Source: Escherichia coli (GTDB taxonomy: Bacteria > Pseudomonadota > Gammaproteobacteria > Enterobacterales > Enterobacteriaceae). Taken from it: a stretch of DNA of 64,000 nt. How positions within the stretch are numbered: the first letter of the stretch is position 1; each line of letters begins with the position of its first letter. The notes under the pieces are model-generated. The model worked only from the letters and a program-made list of their open reading frames with translations, did no database searches and was not told where the DNA came from. Both the position numbers and the translations under genes were made by a program. Shown here piece after piece: positions 10,887 through 61,340 of the stretch. The DNA is taken from assembly GCF_003790525.1 (NCBI RefSeq), contig NZ_CP033635.1; one strand, given 5' to 3'.

Positions 10887-11879
10887 ATGAGTCAGAATAC
10901 GCTGAAAGTTCATGATTTAAATGAAGATGCGGAATTTGATGAGAACGGAGTTGAGGTTTTTGACGAAAAGGCCTTAGTAGAAGAGGAACCCAGTGATAAC
11001 GATTTGGCCGAAGAGGAACTGTTATCGCAGGGAGCCACACAGCGTGTGCTGGACGCGACTCAGCTTTACCTTGGTGAGATTGGTTATTCACCACTGTTAA
11101 CGGCCGAAGAAGAAGTTTATTTTGCGCGTCGCGCACTGCGTGGAGATGTTGCCTCTCGCCGCCGGATGATCGAGAGTAACTTGCGTCTGGTGGTAAAAAT
11201 TGCCCGCCGTTATGGCAATCGTGGTCTGGCGTTGCTGGACCTGATCGAAGAGGGCAACCTGGGGCTGATCCGCGCGGTAGAGAAGTTTGACCCGGAACGT
11301 GGTTTCCGCTTCTCAACATACGCAACCTGGTGGATTCGCCAGACGATCGAACGGGCGATTATGAACCAAACCCGTACTATTCGTTTGCCGATTCACATCG
11401 TAAAGGAGCTGAACGTTTACCTGCGAACCGCACGCGAGTTGTCCCATAAACTGGACCATGAACCAAGTGCGGAAGAGATCGCAGAGCAACTGGATAAGCC
11501 AGTTGATGACGTCAGCCGTATGCTTCGTCTTAACGAGCGCATTACCTCGGTAGACACCCCGCTGGGTGGTGATTCCGAAAAAGCGTTGCTGGACATCCTG
11601 GCCGATGAAAAAGAGAACGGTCCGGAAGATACCACGCAAGATGACGATATGAAGCAGAGCATCGTCAAATGGCTGTTCGAGCTGAACGCCAAACAGCGTG
11701 AAGTGCTGGCACGTCGATTCGGTTTGCTGGGGTACGAAGCGGCAACACTGGAAGATGTAGGTCGTGAAATTGGCCTCACCCGTGAACGTGTTCGCCAGAT
11801 TCAGGTTGAAGGCCTGCGCCGTTTGCGCGAAATCCTGCAAACGCAGGGGCTGAATATCGAAGCGCTGTTCCGCGAATAA
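10887..11879 (+). CDS. rpoS: RNA polymerase sigma factor RpoS (sigma-38), full length
   Basis: ORF track start 10851 trimmed to ATG 10887 ([11 protein letters not shown]...), 330 aa; codon 33 is GAG (Glu). Confidence 0.96.
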
Positions 11880-11895
11880 GTAAGCATCTGTCAGA

Positions 11896-11930
11896 AAGGC
11901 CAGTCTCAAGCGAGGCTGGCCTTTTTCTTT
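11896..11930 (+). terminator. Rho-independent terminator downstream of rpoS
   Basis: GC-rich hairpin AAAGGCCAGTCTCAAGCGAGGCTGGCCTTT followed by a T-tract. Confidence 0.8.
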
Positions 11931-11998
11931 TATTTGGGAGTCGGTGTGTTTTGTCGCCTGGATAAGACACGTCAGCGTCCCACCCGGCAATCAACATC

Positions 11999-12439
11999 CT
12001 ATTTGCTCATCATCTTGCGCACCAGCTGCATAAACAGCTCCTGCTCTTCTGCACTCAAACGCCCCAAAAATTCCTCATCCACACTGTCACCAATCGGTAT
12101 CGCCGCAGCAAGTACCTTTTCTCCTTCGGCAGTCAGCCAGACAAAGCGTCGCCGCTTATCAGCAGAGTCATGTTCTCGTCTGACTAAGCCACGATTTTCC
12201 ATTCGTGCCAACATTTCTGCCAGCGTTGCTTTGGTGCTGACGGCTGCTTCTATCAGTGCCACCTGTTCGATACCAGGTTTATCAGCAATGGCGCGCATCA
12301 CCGCGTACTGTGGTTTGGTCAGATCAGGTAACTCGTGCTGCCAGCGAGCCGTGTGCTGCTGAAAAAGCTGTCGTAACTGATGGAACGCTTTATTTCGTAA
12401 CGCCATGTAAACTCCGGGCAAACTATCTGCCGCTATCAT
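11999..12439 (-). CDS. MarR/SlyA-family transcriptional regulator
   Basis: 146-aa ORF with winged-helix region typical of the MarR family; divergent from the decarboxylase operon. Confidence 0.85.
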   Translation of the reverse strand: MIAADSLPGVYMALRNKAFHQLRQLFQQHTARWQHELPDLTKPQYAVMRAIADKPGIEQVALIEAAVSTKATLAEMLARMENRGLVRREHDSADKRRRFVWLTAEGEKVLAAAIPIGDSVDEEFLGRLSAEEQELFMQLVRKMMSK

Positions 12440-12521
12440 AGCGGTTTTTCAGTGACGAAGAAGATGTTGTTACTTTTCAGCGCTTGCCGCGATGAAAACA
12501 GAGGCGTATTTTAATAATAAC

Positions 12522-12535
12522 GTTCGTATACGAAC
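12522..12535. promoter_or_regulatory. Perfect 14-bp palindrome GTTCGTATACGAAC, candidate operator for the adjacent MarR-family regulator
   Basis: Read directly; sits about 18 bp upstream of the ATG at 12553 inside the divergent intergenic region. Confidence 0.4.
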
Positions 12536-12552
12536 AATTTAGAGAGTAAGCA

Positions 12553-13146
12553 ATGAAACTGATCGTCGGGATGACAGGGGCTACCGGTGCGCCTCTTGGG
12601 GTGGCATTACTGCAAGCGCTGCGGGAGATGCCGAATGTCGAGACTCATCTGGTGATGTCGAAGTGGGCGAGAACCACCATTGAACTGGAAACGCCTTACA
12701 GCGCTCGCGATGTTGCTGCCCTCGCAGACTTCAGCCATAACCCGGCGGATCAGGCGGCGACCATCTCCTCAGGTTCCTTTCGTACCGACGGCATGATCGT
12801 TATTCCGTGCAGTATGAAAACGCTCGCCGGTATCCGTGCCGGTTACGCCGATGGCCTGGTGGGGCGCGCGGCGGACGTCGTGCTCAAAGAAGGCCGCAAA
12901 CTGGTGCTGGTGCCGCGTGAAATGCCGCTTAGCACAATCCATCTCGAAAATATGCTCGCACTTTCGCGCATGGGCGTGGCGATGGTGCCGCCGATGCCTG
13001 CCTTTTATAACCATCCCGAAACGGTAGATGACATTGTCCACCACGTGGTAGCCCGCGTGCTGGATCAATTTGGCCTCGAACATCCTCACGCCAGGCGCTG
13101 GCAAGGATTGCCGCAGGCCCGGAATTTTTCTCAGGAGAATGAATAA
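12553..13146 (+). CDS. UbiX/Pad1-family flavin prenyltransferase, B subunit of a non-oxidative hydroxyarylic acid decarboxylase system
   Basis: 197-aa ORF, N-terminus MKLIVGMTGATGA typical of the UbiX/PAD1 flavoprotein fold; translationally coupled (ATAATGG) to the UbiD-like gene; ecdB/kpdB/bsdB-type. Confidence 0.88.
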   Translation: MKLIVGMTGATGAPLGVALLQALREMPNVETHLVMSKWARTTIELETPYSARDVAALADFSHNPADQAATISSGSFRTDGMIVIPCSMKTLAGIRAGYADGLVGRAADVVLKEGRKLVLVPREMPLSTIHLENMLALSRMGVAMVPPMPAFYNHPETVDDIVHHVVARVLDQFGLEHPHARRWQGLPQARNFSQENE

Positions 13147-14573
13147 TGGCATTTGATGATTTACGCAGCTTTTTACAGGCGCTCGACGACCATGGGCAAT
13201 TGCTGAAAATCAGCGAAGAGGTGAACGCAGAACCGGATCTGGCAGCCGCAGCCAACGCCACCGGGCGTATCGGCGACGGCGCGCCCGCGCTGTGGTTTGA
13301 CAATATTCGCGGCTTTACCGATGCCCGCGTGGCGATGAACACCATCGGTTCCTGGCAGAACCACGCGATTTCCCTCGGCCTGCCGCCAAATACCCCGGTT
13401 AAAAAACAGATCGATGAGTTTATCCGCCGCTGGGACAACTTCCCGATAGCCCCGGAACGCCGAGCCAATCCAGCCTGGGCGCAGAACACCGTCGATGGCG
13501 AAAAGATTAACCTGTTCGATATCCTGCCGCTGTTTCGTTTAAACGACGGTGATGGCGGTTTCTATCTCGACAAAGCGTGCGTGGTTTCCCGCGATCCGCT
13601 CGACCCGGATAACTTCGGCAAGCAGAACGTCGGTATCTACCGCATGGAAGTGAAGGGCAAACGTAAGCTCGGCCTGCAACCGGTGCCGATGCACGATATC
13701 GCGCTGCATCTGCATAAAGCGGAAGAGCGCGGTGAAGATCTGCCGATTGCCATCACCCTCGGTAACGATCCGATCATCACCCTGATGGGGGCCACGCCGC
13801 TGAAATATGATCAGTCCGAGTACGAAATGGCGGGCGCGCTGCGCGAAAGTCCGTACCCGATTGCCACCGCCCCACTGACCGGTTTTGATGTACCCTGGGG
13901 CTCGGAAGTGATCCTCGAAGGGGTTATCGAAAGTCGTAAACGTGAAATCGAAGGGCCGTTCGGTGAGTTTACCGGGCACTACTCCGGCGGGCGCAACATG
14001 ACCGTGGTGCGCATCGATAACGTCTCTTATCGCAGCAAACCCATTTTTGAATCGCTCTATCTCGGGATGCCGTGGACGGAAATCGACTACCTGATGGGGC
14101 CAGCCACCTGCGTGCCGCTGTATCAGCAACTGAAAGCCGAGTTCCCGGAAGTGCAGGCGGTAAACGCCATGTACACCCACGGCCTGCTGGCGATTATCTC
14201 CACCAAAAAACGCTACGGTGGCTTTGCCCGCGCGGTGGGCCTCCGTGCGATGACCACGCCACACGGTCTGGGCTATGTGAAGATGGTGATTATGGTCGAT
14301 GAAGACGTTGATCCGTTCAACCTGCCGCAGGTGATGTGGGCGCTCTCTTCGAAAGTGAACCCGGCAGGGGATTTGGTGCAGTTGCCGAATATGTCCGTGC
14401 TGGAACTCGACCCTGGCTCAAGTCCGGCGGGGATCACCGACAAGCTGATTATCGACGCCACCACGCCTGTCGCCCCGGACAACCGTGGTCACTACAGTCA
14501 GCCGGTGGTGGATTTACCGGAAACCAAAGCCTGGGCTGAAAAACTGACCGCTATGCTGGCCGCACGTCAATAA
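13146..14573 (+). CDS. UbiD-family decarboxylase, C subunit of a hydroxyarylic acid decarboxylase
   Basis: 475-aa ORF of UbiD size and sequence character; in operon between UbiX-like and small-subunit genes; ecdC/kpdC/bsdC-type. Confidence 0.88.
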   Translation: MAFDDLRSFLQALDDHGQLLKISEEVNAEPDLAAAANATGRIGDGAPALWFDNIRGFTDARVAMNTIGSWQNHAISLGLPPNTPVKKQIDEFIRRWDNFPIAPERRANPAWAQNTVDGEKINLFDILPLFRLNDGDGGFYLDKACVVSRDPLDPDNFGKQNVGIYRMEVKGKRKLGLQPVPMHDIALHLHKAEERGEDLPIAITLGNDPIITLMGATPLKYDQSEYEMAGALRESPYPIATAPLTGFDVPWGSEVILEGVIESRKREIEGPFGEFTGHYSGGRNMTVVRIDNVSYRSKPIFESLYLGMPWTEIDYLMGPATCVPLYQQLKAEFPEVQAVNAMYTHGLLAIISTKKRYGGFARAVGLRAMTTPHGLGYVKMVIMVDEDVDPFNLPQVMWALSSKVNPAGDLVQLPNMSVLELDPGSSPAGITDKLIIDATTPVAPDNRGHYSQPVVDLPETKAWAEKLTAMLAARQ

Positions 14574-14583
14574 GGAGAACAAG

Positions 14584-14820
14584 ATGATTTGTCCACGTTG
14601 TGCTGATGAACAGATTGAAGTGATGGCGAAATCGCCGGTAAAAGATGTCTGGACGGTCTACCAGTGCCAGCATTGCCTCTATACCTGGCGCGATACCGAA
14701 CCGCTGCGCCGCACCAGCCGCGAACATTATCCCGAAGCGTTCCGCATGACGCAGAAAGATATTGATGACGCGCCGATGGTGCCGAGCATCCCGCCGCTGC
14801 TGGCGGAAGGTAAGTGTTAA
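14584..14820 (+). CDS. Small zinc-ribbon subunit (D) of the hydroxyarylic acid decarboxylase
   Basis: 78-aa ORF with CPRC...CQHC motif, 10 nt after the UbiD-like gene. Confidence 0.8.
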   Translation: MICPRCADEQIEVMAKSPVKDVWTVYQCQHCLYTWRDTEPLRRTSREHYPEAFRMTQKDIDDAPMVPSIPPLLAEGKC

Positions 14821-14821
14821 T

Positions 14822-14857
14822 AAAAAAGTGCCGGGTAGAGGCTTTGCTTTACCCGGC
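14822..14857. terminator. Bidirectional hairpin terminator between the convergent decarboxylase operon and pphB
   Basis: Hairpin GCCGGGTAGAGGCTTTGCTTTACCCGGC flanked by A-run on the + side (T-run on the - strand) and T-rich sequence on the other side. Confidence 0.6.
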
Positions 14858-14861
14858 CACG

Positions 14862-15518
14862 TTATTTAATTTTATAAAACGATAACCGTCTGCTTTCCGG
14901 CGAGCCGGTATCAATATAAACCTGATTGGCAAATGTCTGGATGTTATCAAACATCATATGTCCAAAGATAAAACAGTCGGCACCGTTTATTTCTTTTAAC
15001 TCTCCCTTGAATGATTTCTGCACGCGATCAACAGGCCAGAGTAATTCGCTTTCTGCTATTTCTTTACCAAACTGATATTCATCACCCGGATAATCCGCAT
15101 GTGCGATGACATATTTTATTCTGTCGTTAGTGATTTCAATAATATGTGGAAGATTATGAAAACGTAGCAACAGGTCTATTGCTTCTTTTTGTTCCGTATC
15201 ACTTAACTCAAAGAACCAGTCGCCACCGCTGGCAAGCCACATATTGCCATCGCCGGTCGCGAACGCATCCAACGCCATCGCTTCATGGTTGCCTTTAACC
15301 GATGTAAACCAGGGCTGGTTTAACAGGCGCAGCACGTTAAGACTCTCCGGCCCACGATCGATGTTATCGCCTACCGAAATAAGTAAGTCGGTTTCAGGGC
15401 AAAAAGAGAGTTGATGTAAGCGGGATTGTAATAATTGATAGTCACCATGAATATCACCAACGGCCCATATATGGCGATAGTGATGGACATTGATTTTTTG
15501 ATAGCGTGTAGATGGCAT
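14862..15518 (-). CDS. pphB: Serine/threonine protein phosphatase 2
   Basis: 218-aa ORF with metallophosphatase motifs GDIHGD, GDNIDRG, GNHE; recognised PphB. Confidence 0.92.
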   Translation of the reverse strand: MPSTRYQKINVHHYRHIWAVGDIHGDYQLLQSRLHQLSFCPETDLLISVGDNIDRGPESLNVLRLLNQPWFTSVKGNHEAMALDAFATGDGNMWLASGGDWFFELSDTEQKEAIDLLLRFHNLPHIIEITNDRIKYVIAHADYPGDEYQFGKEIAESELLWPVDRVQKSFKGELKEINGADCFIFGHMMFDNIQTFANQVYIDTGSPESRRLSFYKIK

Positions 15519-15623
15519 GGTTTTACCCTGTAAAATAAGATTTCCTATTATACAGGGTATTTTTATTTGATTCGTCAGTTGTCGTTAATATTCCCGATAG
15601 CAAAAGACTATCGGGAATTGTTA

Positions 15624-18185
15624 TTACACCAGACTCTTCAAGCGATAAATCCACTCCAGCGCCTGACGCGGAGTGAGTGAATCTGGGTCCAGGTTTTCCA
15701 GTGCCTCGACCGCAGGCGAAGTTTCTTCCGGTACGGATAGCAAAGACATTTGTGTACCATCCACTTGCGTAGCAGCGGCGTTCGGCGAAATGCTTTCCAG
15801 CTCACGCAGTTTTTGCCGTGCGCGCTTAATAACCTCTTTTGGCACGCCTGCCAGCGCTGCAACCGCCAGGCCGTAGCTTTTGCTTGCCGCGCCATCCTGC
15901 ACGCTATGCATAAAGGCAATGGTGTCGCCGTGCTCCAGCGCATCGAGATGCACGTTGGCGACGCCTTCCATTTTCTCCGGCAGTTGGGTCAGCTCGAAAT
16001 AGTGGGTAGCAAACAGCGTCAACGCTTTGATCTTATTTGCCAGATTTTCCGCGCATGCCCACGCCAGCGACAGACCATCGTAAGTGGACGTTCCACGCCC
16101 AATCTCGTCCATCAACACCAGACTGTATTCGGTGGCGTTATGTAAAATATTGGCGGTTTCGGTCATCTCCACCATAAAGGTTGAACGTCCGGAAGCCAGA
16201 TCATCCGCGGCACCTACGCGGGTAAAGATGCGATCGATCGGGCCAATCTCGACTTTTTGCGCCGGTACGTAGCTGCCGATATAGGCCATCAGCGCAATCA
16301 ACGCGGTCTGGCGCATATAGGTACTTTTACCGCCCATGTTCGGACCGGTGATGATCAACATGCGGCGCTGCGGCGACAGGTTCAGCGGGTTGGCGATAAA
16401 CGGCTCATTCAGTACCTGTTCAACCACCGGATGGCGGCCTTCGGTAATGCGAATGCCAGGTTTATCAATAAAGGTCGGGCAGGTGTAGTTCAGGGTATAG
16501 GCCCGTTCCGCCAGGTTCACCAGCACGTCGAGTTCCGCCAGCGCGCTCGCGCTCTGTTGCAACGCTTCCAGATGCGGCAACAGCAAGTCGAACAGCTCTT
16601 CATAAAGTTGTTTTTCCAGAGCCAGTGCTTTGCCTTTTGAGGTGAGAACTTTATCTTCGTACTCTTTCAGCTCCGGAATAATGTAACGCTCGGCGTTTTT
16701 CAGCGTCTGGCGGCGCATGTAGTTAATCGGTGCCAGATGGCTTTGCCCACGGCTGATCTGAATGTAGTAGCCGTGCACTGCATTAAAGCCAACTTTCAGC
16801 GTGTCCAGGCCGGTACGTTCACGCTCGCGGACCTCCAGACGCTCCAGATAATCGGTCGCGCCGTCAGCCAGCGCGCGCCACTCATCCAGCTCTTCGTTAT
16901 AGCCCGGTGCGATAACACCACCGTCGCGTACCAGCACTGGCGGTGTGTCGATGATTGCTCGCTCCAGCAGATCGCGCAGCTCGGCAAACTCGCCCATTTT
17001 TTCACGCAGCGCCTGTACCGGAGCGCTATCGACATTTTCTAATAGTGCACGCAGCTCCGGCAGTTGCTGGAAAGCGTGACGCATACGGGCCAGATCGCGT
17101 GGGCGAGCAGTTCGTAAAGCCAGACGTGCCAGAATACGTTCCAGGTCGCCGACCTGACGCAGTACCGGCTGCAGCTCGGCGGTGAAATCCTGCAATGCGC
17201 CAATAGTTTGCTGGCGCTCAAGCAACACGCGGGTATCGCGCACTGGCATATGCAGCCAGCGTTTCAGCATACGGCTGCCCATCGGCGTGACGGTGCAGTC
17301 GAGCACAGAAGCCAGCGTATTTTCCGCACCACCCGCCAGATTCTGGGTGATTTCCAGATTACGACGCGTCGCGGCATCCATAATGATGCTGTCCTGCTCA
17401 CGTTCCATGGTGATAGAACGAATATGCGGCAGGGTCGTGCGTTGGGTATCTTTCGCATACTGCAACAGACAACCGGCAGCACAAAGTCCGCGCGGCGCGT
17501 TCTCGACGCCAAAACCGACCAGATCGCGAGTGCCAAATTGCAGATTCAACTGCTGGCGCGCGGTGTCGATTTCAAACTCCCACAGCGGGCGACGGCGCAG
17601 TCCGCGACGACCTTCAATCAGCGACATCTCGGCGAAATCTTCTGCATACAACAGCTCTGCCGGATTAGTGCGTTGCAGCTCTGCCGCCATCGTTTCGCGG
17701 TCAGCCGGTTCGCTCAGGCGAAAACGCCCGGAACTGATATCCAGCGTCGCGTAGCCGAAACCTTTGCTGTCCTGCCAGATAGCCGCCAGCAGGTTATCCT
17801 GACGCTCCTGCAACAGCGCTTCATCGCTGATGGTGCCCGGCGTAACGATACGCACAACTTTGCGCTCAACCGGACCTTTGCTGGTCGCCGGATCGCCAAT
17901 TTGTTCGCAGATGGCAACGGACTCGCCCTGATTCACCAGTTTGGCGAGGTAGTTTTCCACCGCATGGTAGGGGATCCCCGCCATCGGGATCGGCTCTCCC
18001 GCTGAAGCACCGCGTTTGGTCAGTGAAATATCCAGCAGTTGCGAGGCGCGTTTTGCATCGTCATAAAATAGTTCATAAAAATCACCCATCCGGTAAAACA
18101 GCAGGATCTCGGGATGCTGGGCTTTCAGCTTGAGATATTGCTGCATCATGGGCGTATGGGCATCGAAATTTTCTATTGCACTCAT
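15624..18185 (-). CDS. mutS: DNA mismatch repair protein MutS
   Basis: 853-aa ORF, N-terminus [18 protein letters not shown], Walker [10 protein letters not shown]; recognised MutS. Confidence 0.97.
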
Positions 18186-18854: not shown

Positions 18855-19283
18855 TTACGCTTTGGTGGCAATCAGGATGGCTGATGCTTTGATCAATGCA
18901 ATAACGCGCGAGCCAGTGGTGAGTTTCATTTCATCCTGACTTTCATTTGTTACCACTGCCACAATTTCAAAACCCGCATCCGTTTTGATATGGACAGTGG
19001 CGTTCACTGCGCCTTCGGTGATTGTCGACACGCTGCCAGCAAACTGGTTGCGAGCAGAGAATTTCAGTCCACAGTCTTCCGTTGCCAGTGTTACCCACGG
19101 GGCTTTAATCAGGGCAATCGCTTCTTTCCCTTTTGCCAGACCAAGAGCCTGCTGGCTGCTGTGTGTAACAATTGCCACCAGCTTTGCACCACCTGCCAGC
19201 GTCAGTTCTACTTCATCATTCACAGCGCCCATTGCTACTGCGCTAACTGTTCCGGTTAATTGATTTCTTGCTGAAACTGCCAT
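18855..19283 (-). CDS. Tandem Mop/TOBE-domain (di-Mop) molybdate-binding protein
   Basis: Two internal ~65-aa repeats each beginning SARNQ.. and ending ..ALIKA; likely start ATG at 19283 preceded by AAGGAGG; longest ORF extends to 19322, 5 nt after the fhlA stop. Confidence 0.8.
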   Translation of the reverse strand: MAVSARNQLTGTVSAVAMGAVNDEVELTLAGGAKLVAIVTHSSQQALGLAKGKEAIALIKAPWVTLATEDCGLKFSARNQFAGSVSTITEGAVNATVHIKTDAGFEIVAVVTNESQDEMKLTTGSRVIALIKASAILIATKA

Positions 19284-33195: not shown

Positions 33196-33969
33196 TTGAA
33201 CATCAGAACAGGGATGTGCGCTTTTTTATTGAGCTTAGTGCTGCCTGCACAGGCCACCAGCTTTACCGAATATCTGCCGATGAGTGACAGCGAATACGCG
33301 CAAAAGCGGGCGCTTAAACCTCTCCTGACCATGCCTTATGATGCCGAGCAAAACTGGCATTTTAGAAAAGTGGGCGTTGCTGGCGTGACGCTTGAGAAGA
33401 TGCCAAATGAAGAGGATTACTGGCAATTAACTGCTAAAGACCGCACCGGTAAATCCTGGAAGGTGCCTGTGGGTTTGCTGGCAAATATGGCGGGCAAAGG
33501 GCAGTTCTATCGTGCCGATCTGGATCGTAACGGCATTCAGGATCTGGTTATCTGGTTACCAAGTGCTGGTAATGGTCTGGCTCCTTATGCACATTTAATC
33601 CTTATGACGTTCACGCGCGATGGTCGTCCCTGTGTCTTTGAACCTTGGGGATTCTACACCGCAAGCAAAACTGGCGTAGATGATTTGCTGGATTTGCAAG
33701 GCAATGGCCACACGCAATTGCTGGATATGCAGTTTGATTCCGGTTACTGGATAACCAGTCTGTATCAGGTAAAAGACGCCAAATGGCAGCGTGTTCACGG
33801 CTGGTTTGGCAAGTTAAGCTATCCCGCGCTCACGCGTTTTACTTATACCCCCAACCGTAAACTCGTCCTCAAACCCATCGCCGGGCGCGACCCGCAAACG
33901 GAAGATCTGGCACTGACGCAGCGTTGCTTGATAAAGGGGGATGTTCTTGATGGGGTGAACCAGCTCTGA
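33196..33969 (+). CDS. Hypothetical secreted (periplasmic) protein, family unknown
   Basis: 257-aa ORF; Sec-type signal peptide MNIRTGMCAFLLSLVLPAQA then TSF (TTG start at 33196, alternative ATG at 33214); Trp-rich; two D-x-D/N-x-N-G-like motifs (DLDRNGIQD, DLQGNGHTQ); not recognised as a named E. coli protein. Confidence 0.65.
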   Translation: MNIRTGMCAFLLSLVLPAQATSFTEYLPMSDSEYAQKRALKPLLTMPYDAEQNWHFRKVGVAGVTLEKMPNEEDYWQLTAKDRTGKSWKVPVGLLANMAGKGQFYRADLDRNGIQDLVIWLPSAGNGLAPYAHLILMTFTRDGRPCVFEPWGFYTASKTGVDDLLDLQGNGHTQLLDMQFDSGYWITSLYQVKDAKWQRVHGWFGKLSYPALTRFTYTPNRKLVLKPIAGRDPQTEDLALTQRCLIKGDVLDGVNQL

Positions 33970-57766: not shown

Positions 57767-57859
57767 GGTGAGGTGGCCGAGAGGCTGAAGGCGCTCCCCT
57801 GCTAAGGGAGTATGCGGTCAAAAGCTGCATCCGGGGTTCGAATCCCCGCCTCACCGCCA
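57767..57859 (+). tRNA. serV: tRNA-Ser (anticodon GCU)
   Basis: 93-nt sequence GGTGAGGTGGCCGAGAGGCTGAAGGCGCTCCCCTGCTAAGGGAG...CGCCTCACCGCCA with long variable arm and encoded CCA. Confidence 0.95.
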
Positions 57860-57862
57860 TTT

Positions 57863-57939
57863 GCATCCGTAGCTCAGCTGGATAGAGTACTCGGCTACGA
57901 ACCGAGCGGTCGGAGGTTCGAATCCTCCCGGATGCACCA
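57863..57939 (+). tRNA. tRNA-Arg (anticodon ACG), copy 1
   Basis: 77-nt GCATCCGTAGCTCAGCTGGATAGAGTACTCGGCTACGAACCGAGCGGTCGGAGGTTCGAATCCTCCCGGATGCACCA. Confidence 0.95.
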
Positions 57940-58003
57940 TCTCTTACTTGATACGGCTTTAGTAGCGGTATCAAAAAATCTGCAGTAAAGTAAGTTTCCC
58001 GAT

Positions 58004-58080
58004 GCATCCGTAGCTCAGCTGGATAGAGTACTCGGCTACGAACCGAGCGGTCGGAGGTTCGAATCCTCCCGGATGCACCA
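58004..58080 (+). tRNA. tRNA-Arg (anticodon ACG), copy 2
   Basis: Identical 77-nt sequence. Confidence 0.95.
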
Positions 58081-58142
58081 TCTCTTACTTGATATAGCTT
58101 TAGTGGCGGTATCAATATCAGCAGTAAAATAAATTTCCCGAT

Positions 58143-58219
58143 GCATCCGTAGCTCAGCTGGATAGAGTACTCGGCTACGAACCGAGCGGTCGGAGGTTCG
58201 AATCCTCCCGGATGCACCA
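58143..58219 (+). tRNA. tRNA-Arg (anticodon ACG), copy 3
   Basis: Identical 77-nt sequence. Confidence 0.95.
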
Positions 58220-58282
58220 TCTCTTACTTGATATGGCTTTAGTAGCGGTATCAATATCAGCAATAAAATAAATTTTCCCGAT

Positions 58283-58359
58283 GCATCCGTAGCTCAGCTG
58301 GATAGAGTACTCGGCTACGAACCGAGCGGTCGGAGGTTCGAATCCTCCCGGATGCACCA
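58283..58359 (+). tRNA. tRNA-Arg (anticodon ACG), copy 4
   Basis: Identical 77-nt sequence. Confidence 0.95.
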
Positions 58360-61264: not shown

Positions 61265-61340
61265 AAGAAAAAGGCCACTCGTGAGTGGCCAAAATTTCAT
61301 CTCTGAATTCAGGGATGATGATAACAAATGCGCGTCTTTC
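61265..61340 (-). ncRNA. micA: Small regulatory RNA MicA (SraD)
   Basis: Minus-strand reading GAAAGACGCGCATTTGTTATCATCATCCCTGAATTCAGAGATGAAATTTTGGCCACTCACGAGTGGCCTTTTT matches MicA including its terminator hairpin; divergent from luxS. Confidence 0.92.

Follow-up and report, generated by a model that had tools for sequence, protein, structure and literature searches.

A probable HosA-controlled non-oxidative hydroxyarylic acid decarboxylase locus between rpoS and pphB of Escherichia coli, and its likely ancestry

The window, a stretch of 64,000 nucleotides (one strand) from Escherichia coli assembly GCF_003790525.1, contig NZ_CP033635.1, carries at positions 11999-14820 what is very probably a HosA-controlled non-oxidative hydroxyarylic acid decarboxylase locus (ecdBCD / HAD / vdcBCD-type). 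The HosA/EcdBCD locus has already been published, including its regulator with inducer and operator, the chemistry of the cofactor, the substrates, and the polymorphism among strains. Since the locus is already characterised, the value of this analysis as a discovery is small, and its useful point is a corrected direction of evolution. Our own analysis shows what the genes are, where the operator and the junctions lie, how far the synteny extends, and how many genomes carry the module; the ligand response, the synthesis of prenylated FMN (prFMN), the substrates, and the role of subunit D come from the work of others on orthologues. In older annotations, the genes appear under the names slyA/hosA, pad1, and yclC. 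The locus can serve to type E. coli lineages by their mutS-rpoS hot spot and is the source of a HosA biosensor for 4-hydroxybenzoate and parabens, and the operon offers a possible way for gut E. coli to produce phenol.

Layout of the locus and comparison with other strains

The features of the locus and its flanks are the following:

10887-11879, plus strand: rpoS, left flank
11893..11926, plus strand: rpoS intrinsic terminator hairpin (terminator scan, inverted repeat, and alignment with K-12 and O157)
11956..11988, no strand: imperfect palindrome GCCTGGATAAGACACGTCAGCGTCCCACCCGGC in the gap that separates the rpoS terminator from the stop codon of hosA, read from the sequence
11999..12406, minus strand: hosA, MarR-family repressor of 135 aa
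12522..12535, no strand: assigned HosA operator GTTCGTATACGAAC, a perfect 14-bp palindrome
12553..13146, plus strand: subunit B (ecdB / pad1 / vdcB), predicted UbiX-type flavin prenyltransferase
13146..14573, plus strand: subunit C (ecdC / yclC / vdcC), UbiD-family prFMN-dependent decarboxylase
14584..14820, plus strand: subunit D (ecdD / vdcD), 78-aa zinc-ribbon activator of C
14830..14857, plus strand: REP-like hairpin GCCGGGTAGAGGCTTTGCTTTACCCGGC, 3' of D, a terminator-like site from the terminator scan
14862..15518, minus strand: pphB (NF007425, 459 bits vs. a cut-off of 332; annotation agrees), right edge, convergent with the operon
15624-18185, minus strand: mutS, beyond pphB

An earlier note on this DNA had described, between rpoS and pphB, a MarR gene divergent from an operon of UbiX-like, UbiD-like, and zinc-ribbon genes, and all four open reading frames were found in the ORF list at the coordinates it gave. 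The divergent genes hosA and B are separated by a spacer of 146 bp. In the operon, the TAA stop codon of B overlaps the start codon of C by one base (TAATG), and the stop codon of C is followed by GGAGAACAAG and then by the start of D, which leaves a 10-nt gap holding a Shine-Dalgarno sequence. The operon transcript probably ends at the hairpin 14830..14857, which is also present in O157, Escherichia sp. E1V33, Pseudocitrobacter, Citrobacter, and Enterobacter, and is absent in the composite DEC9B. The palindrome at 11956..11988, which may be REP-like judging from the REP consensus, was found by alignment in O157 and DEC9B too.

The window and the corresponding DNA of E. coli SMS-3-5 are 100% identical. 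In K-12 MG1655, the corresponding region reads pphB-ygbI-ygbJKLMN-rpoS, without the module. The rpoS terminator is the final stretch common to the window and K-12: in the alignment, identity stops at 11925 and is found again from the stop codon of pphB (14862) onwards, so that the DNA absent from K-12 comprises positions 11926-14861, that is, 2,936 bp, in agreement with the segment of about 2.9 kb that had been proposed to be missing there. A 2.9-kb polymorphic mutS-rpoS segment is attributed to LeClerc 1999 and Herbelin 2000 by the papers that relay them (PMC4209514, PMC5491219). The genes, order, orientation, flanks, and operator all match those of O157:H7, with 95.3% identity in the module DNA and only 88.6% in pphB, and the divergence from both O157 and K-12 jumps at the rpoS terminator. 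The window is an allelic variant of the O157:H7 / EPEC / UPEC HosA-EcdBCD locus. Its description as O157:H7-like in the earlier note is right for gene content and order, but the sequence is that of the SMS-3-5 lineage, with a module about 5% different from that of O157.

HosA and its operator

HosA differs at two positions from the protein deposited as PDB 8AGA ('Transcriptional regulator HosA', the EPEC structure), with 133/135 residues aligned and identical, and it shares 129/135 residues with the O157 orthologue. An in-frame ATG upstream, at 12439, would extend the ORF to 146 aa; the RefSeq protein, annotated as a 408-nt ORF, and the PDB protein begin at 12406, where a GGAG is located 6 nt 5' of the ATG.

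The palindrome at 12522-12535 lies 17 nt 5' of the B start codon, immediately 5' of the B ribosome-binding site. Together with its flanks (TAATAAC..AATT), it is contained exactly in the HosA-binding oligonucleotide T_H (PMC6261655 supplement), a match by which it can be equated, at the level of sequence, with the published HosA binding site. The half-sites GTTCG/CGAAC are kept in 78/78 related loci, with two mismatches at most over the 14 bp, and the site mostly precedes the start codon of B by 15-19 nt. A second palindrome (12429-12445) was also considered as a conserved HosA site and was dropped, its conservation being confined to Escherichia.

It has been demonstrated by EMSA, BLI, and ITC with the UMN026 protein that the binding of 4-hydroxybenzoate (4-HBA) frees HosA from its operator; the Kd from ITC was 4.7 uM (PMC6261655). 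Work by Roy and Ranjan, as summarised in a preprint (bioRxiv 10.1101/2024.04.24.590444), describes an operon that is repressed and that 4-HBA induces. Given these near-identical orthologues, the HosA of this window would be expected to respond to 4-hydroxybenzoate in the same way.

A consensus scan of 11860-14900, hosA-B spacer included, returned no sigma-70 site reaching the threshold, and for this reason no promoter is claimed. A candidate promoter at 12484-12512 (TTGCCG-17 nt-TATTTT) agrees with the consensus at only 8/12 positions. As the scan was empty and the candidate agrees so poorly, the position of the operator relative to the transcription start is taken from the literature, where a summary places it downstream. 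In the paper on the sigma-S regulon (PMC3141248), we found only the housekeeping ubiX and no mention of this operon.

A similar logic is found in PcaV and other MarR sensors of phenolic acids (PDB 4FHT, E=2e-16), in which a hydroxybenzoate-type ligand also frees a MarR-fold repressor and the catabolic genes are divergent. However, the sequences are distant, and both ligand and target genes differ: protocatechuate and the genes of ring cleavage for PcaV, 4-hydroxybenzoate and those of a decarboxylase for HosA.

Decarboxylase subunits, substrates, and proposed mechanism

Subunit B passes the profile models NF041206 VdcB (312 bits vs. a cut-off of 290) and TIGR00421 (245 vs. 109), matches PDB 1SBZ with E=4e-129, and is identical at 195/197 residues to the O157 protein of that structure (WP_000767724), with His164 present. 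The O157 UbiX protein has been shown to form prFMNH2 and, as an enzyme of the O157 type of B, to take both DMAP and DMAPP, whereas K-12 UbiX takes DMAPP only (PMC6541611). B is assigned by this similarity as a flavin prenyltransferase predicted to make prenylated FMN.

Subunit C scores 788 bits on the VdcC model NF041204 (cut-off 650) and 419 on TIGR00148 (cut-off 245), but only 172 on the UbiD-equivalog model NF008175, whose cut-off is 788. It matches chain A of PDB 7AE4 (ShVdcC) over residues 3-471 with E=4e-159, and the motifs NVGIYR (161-166), MHDIA (182-186), SEYEM (224-228), and EGPFGEF (269-275) are conserved in this alignment. According to its authors, ShVdcC keeps all catalytic residues, and motif identity suggests that those of C would play the same catalytic E(D)-R-E and metal/phosphate-binding roles. 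Compared with O157, C is identical at 469/475 residues; 75 codons differ and only 6 of them alter the amino acid, a clear sign of purifying selection.

Subunit D passes the VdcD model NF041205 (121 bits vs. a cut-off of 30), is identical to its O157 counterpart at 77/78 residues, and aligns with ShdD of PDB 7AE4. Its Cys3, Cys6, Cys28, and Cys31, arranged in two CxxC knuckles, occupy the zinc-ligand positions of ShVdcD and form a predicted zinc site. VdcD binds zinc via C3, C6, C28, and C31, and the activity of VdcC requires VdcD, a requirement demonstrated in the Bacillus and Sedimentibacter enzymes (PMC8379154).

The order B-C-D, the adjacency of the genes on one strand, and the passing of all three subunit models place the operon in the VdcBCD/EcdBCD/BsdBCD class. 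The families that the earlier note had proposed were recovered for each gene: MarR for the regulator, UbiX for the first gene, zinc ribbon for the small protein, and, for the large subunit, UbiD of the VdcC type. The note had named two findings that would overturn its reading, a large subunit outside the UbiD family and the presence of the segment at this site in K-12; both were checked, and neither was observed.

Among the closest known systems are the Sedimentibacter hydroxybenzoicus enzyme VdcCD/ShdCD and the Bacillus subtilis enzyme BsdBCD (PDB 7AE4; PMC8379154), which share with this locus the B-C-D set, a UbiD-fold C, a Cys4 zinc-ribbon D, the substrates 4-hydroxybenzoate and vanillate, and the catalytic and metal-binding motifs. 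The C protein of the window is ~60% identical to ShVdcC, and its D protein ~40% identical to the corresponding subunit, with a 6-residue insertion. The regulation differs as well: to our knowledge, a HosA regulator has not been described for either S. hydroxybenzoicus or B. subtilis. UbiX and UbiD of ubiquinone synthesis in K-12 (PDB 2IDB, 5M1C) also combine UbiX-made prFMN with a decarboxylase of the UbiD family whose substrate has a 4-hydroxybenzoate ring, but K-12 UbiD uses a polyprenylated substrate without a D subunit, and ubiX and ubiD are unlinked in that strain.

As the earlier note had stated, the substrate and the signal are unreadable from the letters; experiments on orthologues, however, do give 4-hydroxybenzoate, plus vanillate as second substrate. 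In PMC6644310, a table that cites Lupa 2005 gives these two compounds as substrates of O157:H7 EcdCD, 4-hydroxybenzoate being the best listed. The C and D proteins of this strain, with a 99%-identical orthologue in O157:H7, would be expected to decarboxylate both.

According to the mechanism that we propose, a HosA dimer on GTTCGTATACGAAC would keep both B-C-D and its own gene from being transcribed until 4-hydroxybenzoate binds HosA, which would then leave the DNA. B, C, and D would be produced from a single, closely packed transcript, and B would prenylate reduced FMN with dimethylallyl phosphate or pyrophosphate to yield prFMNH2. This cofactor would be taken by C, clamped by the Cys4 zinc ribbon of D in a manner that steadies the loops bearing the catalytic Glu-Arg-Glu, and the C-D complex would convert, reversibly, 4-hydroxybenzoate to phenol and CO2, and vanillate to guaiacol and CO2. 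The operon is presumed to be active in this particular strain from O157/EPEC proteins 96-99% identical to its HosA, B, C, and D.

Two other readings of the function have been weighed. The main substrate or direction might differ, with decarboxylation of protocatechuate or gallate, or anaerobic carboxylation of phenol, or B might serve as a spare UbiX. This class of enzymes is reversible and takes several phenolic acids, related UbiD enzymes use protocatechuate (the AroY structure 5O3M matches C at E=3e-27), and the B orthologue is a fully competent prFMN synthase in a species whose K-12 UbiD needs prFMN too. Yet the cognate regulator answers to 4-HBA, the compound that also heads the substrates listed for the O157 enzyme in PMC6644310, C does far better on the VdcC model than on NF008175, AroY is a far more remote match, and the operon is dispensable and missing in K-12, so it is not the primary ubiquinone route; a different main role is thus very unlikely. 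It is extremely unlikely, in turn, that HosA acts mainly as a global regulator of motility and virulence and neighbours the decarboxylase genes by chance. The first description of HosA was as a regulator of the SlyA family affecting motility in EPEC (Ferrandiz 2005, as reported by a citing paper), which indicates that it may have targets besides this operon. Nevertheless, hosA, the operator, and C-D are kept together in 78/78 loci, including those of genera with the module away from rpoS, and the operator lies in the ribosome-binding region of the operon. Moreover, adherence, type III secretion, and LEE regulation were found to be unaffected, and a local role can coexist with extra targets. 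HosA-controlled decarboxylation of 4-hydroxybenzoate remains the preferred reading.

Distribution and ancestry of the module

The module is present in ~2,400 of 5,426 complete E. coli genomes and absent from ~55% of them. In 1,602 of the ~2,400 it coexists with ygb alongside, and ~805 show the direct D-pphB junction of the window. As so many genomes hold both, the module and ygb do not stand in for each other at a single site. Outside E. coli, the order nlpD-rpoS-hosA-B-C-D-(pphB)-mutS has been found in over 40 species belonging to over 15 genera of enterobacteria, among them Citrobacter, Pseudocitrobacter, Enterobacter, Klebsiella, Kluyvera, Leclercia, Kosakonia, Atlantibacter, Franconibacter, Cedecea, and Mangrovibacter. 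This conservation across so many Enterobacteriaceae genera implies that K-12 lost the module. It is highly likely that the ancestor of Enterobacteriaceae already held the module in its rpoS-mutS interval; the arrangement in the window is, in all probability, the nearest to the ancestor, with the module deleted in K-12-like strains; and many E. coli strains have the ygb cluster as an insertion between D and pphB. Annotations of an islet based on comparison with K-12 are misleading, because K-12 is the exception among Enterobacteriaceae in missing the module. In Salmonella and Phytobacter, the module is inverted beside rpoS, which points to a history more complicated than simple retention. The derivation of the window arrangement from a module-plus-ygb composite via simple deletion was rejected, since the hairpin after D is absent there and common to other genera.

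The earlier note had interpreted the segment as an islet that replaced ygbI-N, and this claim does not survive the conserved synteny and the genomes with both clusters. A horizontally acquired islet displacing ygbI-N in this lineage would account for the absence of the module from K-12 and from more than half of the complete genomes, for its slightly higher G+C (0.557 vs. 0.522 in pcm-rpoS), and for the abrupt rise in divergence from O157 and K-12 at the rpoS terminator; in addition, a 2024 preprint terms HosA 'horizontally acquired' from Shigella. The unusual likeness of C-D in Escherichia and Pseudocitrobacter could be invoked as well, and indicates that alleles do get exchanged at this locus. 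However, the module bears none of the mobility genes, repeats, or tRNA of a genomic island or mobile insertion: the ORF list contains no integrase or IS element, a search for direct repeats on either side of the module gave only short chance matches, and no tRNA was found nearby, the Rfam scan being empty in or near the module. The K-12 junction, in which 9 filler bases separate the terminators of rpoS and ygbN, resembles a deletion, and the data fit allele replacement by recombination rather than a first-time insertion. Added to the synteny and to the 1,602 genomes with both clusters, this makes acquisition as an islet very improbable, and an ancestral module is preferred.

Among E. coli plasmids, the module was never found. 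A search of PLSDB with the C protein gave enteric matches that were mislabelled chromosomes or very large replicons (~0.57-0.73 Mb), and the matches in Pantoea, Rahnella, and Chimaeribacter were plasmids of 200-794 kb.

The DNA of this E. coli lineage and that of Pseudocitrobacter were also compared along the locus. The C-D block (13146-14820), possibly with pphB, is 91-96% identical between them, and the adjacent hosA and B are 60-74% and 78-90% identical, respectively. A recent intergeneric exchange of the catalytic C-D genes alone, inside an otherwise vertical locus, might explain this pattern and may be unpublished, although we propose it tentatively, with the balance slightly against it; alternatively, C-D DNA may be unusually constrained, with no exchange between Escherichia and Pseudocitrobacter.

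Genes of the module and their products

The description in the earlier note of a MarR-family regulator gene divergent from a three-gene operon is borne out in full by the ORF list, which gives the four genes at 11999-14820.

Features of the hosA-decarboxylase module
11999-12406, minus strand: hosA, MarR-family regulator, 135 aa
12553-13146, plus strand: B, UbiX-type subunit, 197 aa
13146-14573, plus strand: C, UbiD-family subunit, 475 aa
14584-14820, plus strand: D, zinc-ribbon subunit, 78 aa
14830-14857: REP-like hairpin 3' of D

The genes pcm, nlpD and rpoS lie upstream of the module, while pphB and mutS lie downstream and are convergent with the operon. B and C overlap by one base (TAATG), and the 10-nt gap between C and D contains a GGAG. 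An in-frame ATG at 12439 lengthens the mechanical hosA ORF to 146 aa; the start used in RefSeq and in the crystallised protein gives MALRNK.

The reading of the operon as UbiX-like, UbiD-like and zinc-ribbon decarboxylase genes was confirmed at the protein level. B, C and D each score above the curated NCBIfam cut-offs for subunits B, C and D of non-oxidative hydroxyarylic acid decarboxylases, and the general UbiX and UbiD models are also passed by B and C, respectively. B matches PDB 1SBZ ("Pad1" from E. coli O157:H7; E=4e-129) and differs in 2 of 197 residues from the O157 protein (WP_000767724, the accession annotated at the O157 locus), which makes prenylated FMNH2 from DMAP or DMAPP (PMC6541611). 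C is matched over its whole length by ShVdcC (7AE4; E=4e-159), a vanillate/4-hydroxybenzoate decarboxylase, with the motifs near the cofactor and the catalytic residues kept. D aligns with ShdD/VdcD, and its cysteines at positions 3, 6, 28 and 31 are the zinc ligands of the crystal structure. VdcC requires VdcD for activity; the latter is a zinc ribbon and stabilises the loops holding the catalytic Glu-Arg-Glu residues (PMC8379154). A table in a review lists 4-hydroxybenzoate (the best) and vanillate as substrates of EcdCD from E. coli O157:H7 (PMC6644310). HosA shows two mismatches to PDB 8AGA (133 of 135 residues aligned and identical).

Operator and inducer

The 146-bp spacer between hosA and B contains a 14-bp perfect palindrome, GTTCGTATACGAAC, at 12522-12535, 17 nt 5' of the B start codon. 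This palindrome and its flanks are found within the oligonucleotide used for HosA binding measurements in PMC6261655, a study in which HosA was freed from the site by 4-hydroxybenzoate, with a ligand Kd of 4.7 uM. The half-sites GTTCG/CGAAC appear in all 78 of the 78 related loci of other species, with up to two mismatches over the 14 bp and usually 15-19 nt 5' of the first operon gene, and no other stretch of the spacer is strongly conserved. Since no consensus promoter reached threshold in a scan of the region, the promoter position was taken from the literature. According to a preprint's account of the original biochemical work, HosA represses both itself and the decarboxylase operon, 4-hydroxybenzoate is the inducer, and the HosA site lies 3' of the transcription start, where it acts as a roadblock.

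The feature is thus real, was correctly read from the DNA, and is already characterised in detail. It is true that neither the substrate nor the signal can be read from sequence, as had been stated, but both have already been established for proteins that share 96-99% identity with these, and the impression of an unknown inducer needs correcting.

At 12429-12445, 23 nt 5' of the start codon of hosA, there is a second palindrome, GCCGCTATCATAGCGGT. O157, Escherichia sp. E1V33 and DEC9B share this palindrome, but other genera do not, and it may be a hairpin of the hosA leader or a second regulatory site.

Ancestry of the module in the rpoS-mutS interval

Over the 9.3 kb around the module, the DNA matches E. 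coli SMS-3-5 and a number of further isolates at 100% identity. As had been proposed, the gene content is that of O157:H7, which has the same gene order at 95.3% identity, and K-12 carries ygbI-ygbN here without the module (pphB-ygbI-ygbJKLMN-rpoS). Identity to K-12 ends at 11925, just past the rpoS terminator, and restarts at 14862, the pphB stop codon, so that 2,936 bp are missing from K-12. The mutS-rpoS literature knows this stretch as the "2.9-kb" segment, and it corresponds to "pattern I" of PMC4209514.

The idea that the module is an islet which replaced the ygb cluster was not upheld. In DEC9B the order is rpoS-hosA-B-C-D-ygbN...ygbI-pphB-mutS, so both segments coexist side by side in a composite arrangement.

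Arrangement counts from searches for the junctions in 5,426 complete E. coli genomes
D-ygbN junction (module plus ygb): 1,602 genomes
Direct D-pphB junction (as in the window): 804 genomes
Contiguous pcm-to-mutS block without ygb: 809 genomes
Module in any arrangement: 2,379-2,414 genomes

Synteny outside E. coli was studied in the best 80 loci encoding a C homologue (one genome per species), with neighbouring genes placed by tblastn. The order nlpD-rpoS-hosA(-)-B-C-D followed by mutS, sometimes with pphB between, is found in many genera: Citrobacter, Pseudocitrobacter, Enterobacter, Klebsiella, Kluyvera, Lelliottia, Leclercia, Kosakonia, Atlantibacter, Franconibacter, Cedecea, Mangrovibacter, Pluralibacter and others. 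Among these 80 loci, other contexts occur only outside Enterobacteriaceae (Pantoea, Rahnella, Erwinia and a Vibrio). In Salmonella enterica subsp. arizonae and diarizonae (L021, L023) and in Phytobacter (L028, L047, L048), the module still adjoins rpoS in inverted orientation, with D instead of hosA facing it, and ygbI/ygbK homologues adjoin hosA in the two Salmonella loci, indicating that the interval has been rearranged more than once.

O157, a further Escherichia species, Pseudocitrobacter, Citrobacter and Enterobacter also have the hairpin after D, but the composite arrangement lacks it. The ORF list and the repeat and RNA searches revealed no mobility genes, flanking repeats or tRNA genes at the module, and no E. 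coli plasmid carries it. Nine unrelated bases connect the terminators of rpoS and ygbN in K-12, a junction that looks like a deletion scar. Taken together, synteny, the shared hairpin, this scar and the lack of mobility signs argue that the module is the ancestral occupant of the interval. On these comparative data, the arrangement in the window is the closest to the ancestor and K-12 lost the module. The ygb cluster is an extra segment, situated between D and pphB. This view accords with the title of Herbelin et al. 2000, "Gene conservation and loss", and with what that paper reportedly argues.

Some variants were also observed. Strain 23CRST013 (NZ_AP045773.1) is 100% identical to 11880-14861 and holds an IS4-like ISVsa5 in the module region, a natural insertion variant. 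In loci L041, L052, L054, L063, L064, L070, L073-L075, L077, L083 and L084, C and D come immediately after a hosA-like gene and no B separates them; a ubiX at another genomic site presumably serves these species. The MAG "Citrobacter sp. HRGM_Genome_0066" has two locus copies, one E. coli-like (HosA 99% and MutS 100% to the window) and one Citrobacter-like (L005 and L010), probably due to E. coli contamination of the bin.

Divergence across the interval and other observations

Up to the end of rpoS the DNA differs from that of K-12 and O157 by about 1%; the divergence then rises abruptly to 2-8% within the module and 11-13% within pphB, and is about 4.5% for mutS (95.5% identical). The step in identity at the rpoS terminator (98-100% to its left versus 86-98% from 11880 to 18185) fits the known mutS-rpoS recombination hot spot. 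Compared with O157, only 6 of the 75 codons that differ in C, and 3 of the 110 in mutS, change the amino acid; these genes are thus maintained by selection.

C-D (13146-14820) shows 91-96% DNA identity to three Pseudocitrobacter loci (L007, L008, L009) and 92-98% to O157, while hosA (60-74%), B (78-90%) and nlpD (68-79%) are less similar to the same three loci. This pattern suggests that the catalytic genes may have been exchanged between Escherichia and Pseudocitrobacter.

pphB (14862-15518, minus strand) has 87-89% DNA identity to the K-12, O157 and DEC9B alleles, compared to 99% for rpoS, with 22-27 of 218 residues changed in its product. Its G+C is 0.423 versus 0.534 for the whole window, and among the 80 loci of other species it appears only in Escherichia, Pseudocitrobacter and Klebsiella spallanzanii (61% identity), setting aside L005, a Citrobacter-labelled MAG locus with pphB that resembles E. 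coli DNA. By its divergence, low G+C and narrow distribution, pphB resembles an acquired gene more than the module does.

Between fhlA and ygbA, where K-12 has just 36 bp, there is a 142-aa ORF (18855-19283, minus strand) whose product has two molybdenum-pterin-binding (Mop/TOBE) domains. This ORF is the counterpart of "c3292", described for CFT073 and E2348/69 in PMC4209514, so a B2-type fhlA-mutS spacer occurs in this strain together with an O157-type rpoS-pphB arrangement. Between ascB and hycI, a 251-aa ORF annotated as hypothetical (33214-33969, plus strand) gave no family match in an NCBIfam search. RpoS (10887-11879) has Glu33 versus Gln33 in K-12 MG1655, the sole difference in 330 residues, at a codon known to be polymorphic. 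Finally, the csrA-luxS region has its ordinary content, namely a tRNA-Ser gene with four identical tRNA-Arg genes after it, as well as the MicA sRNA (57767-58356 and 61269-61340).
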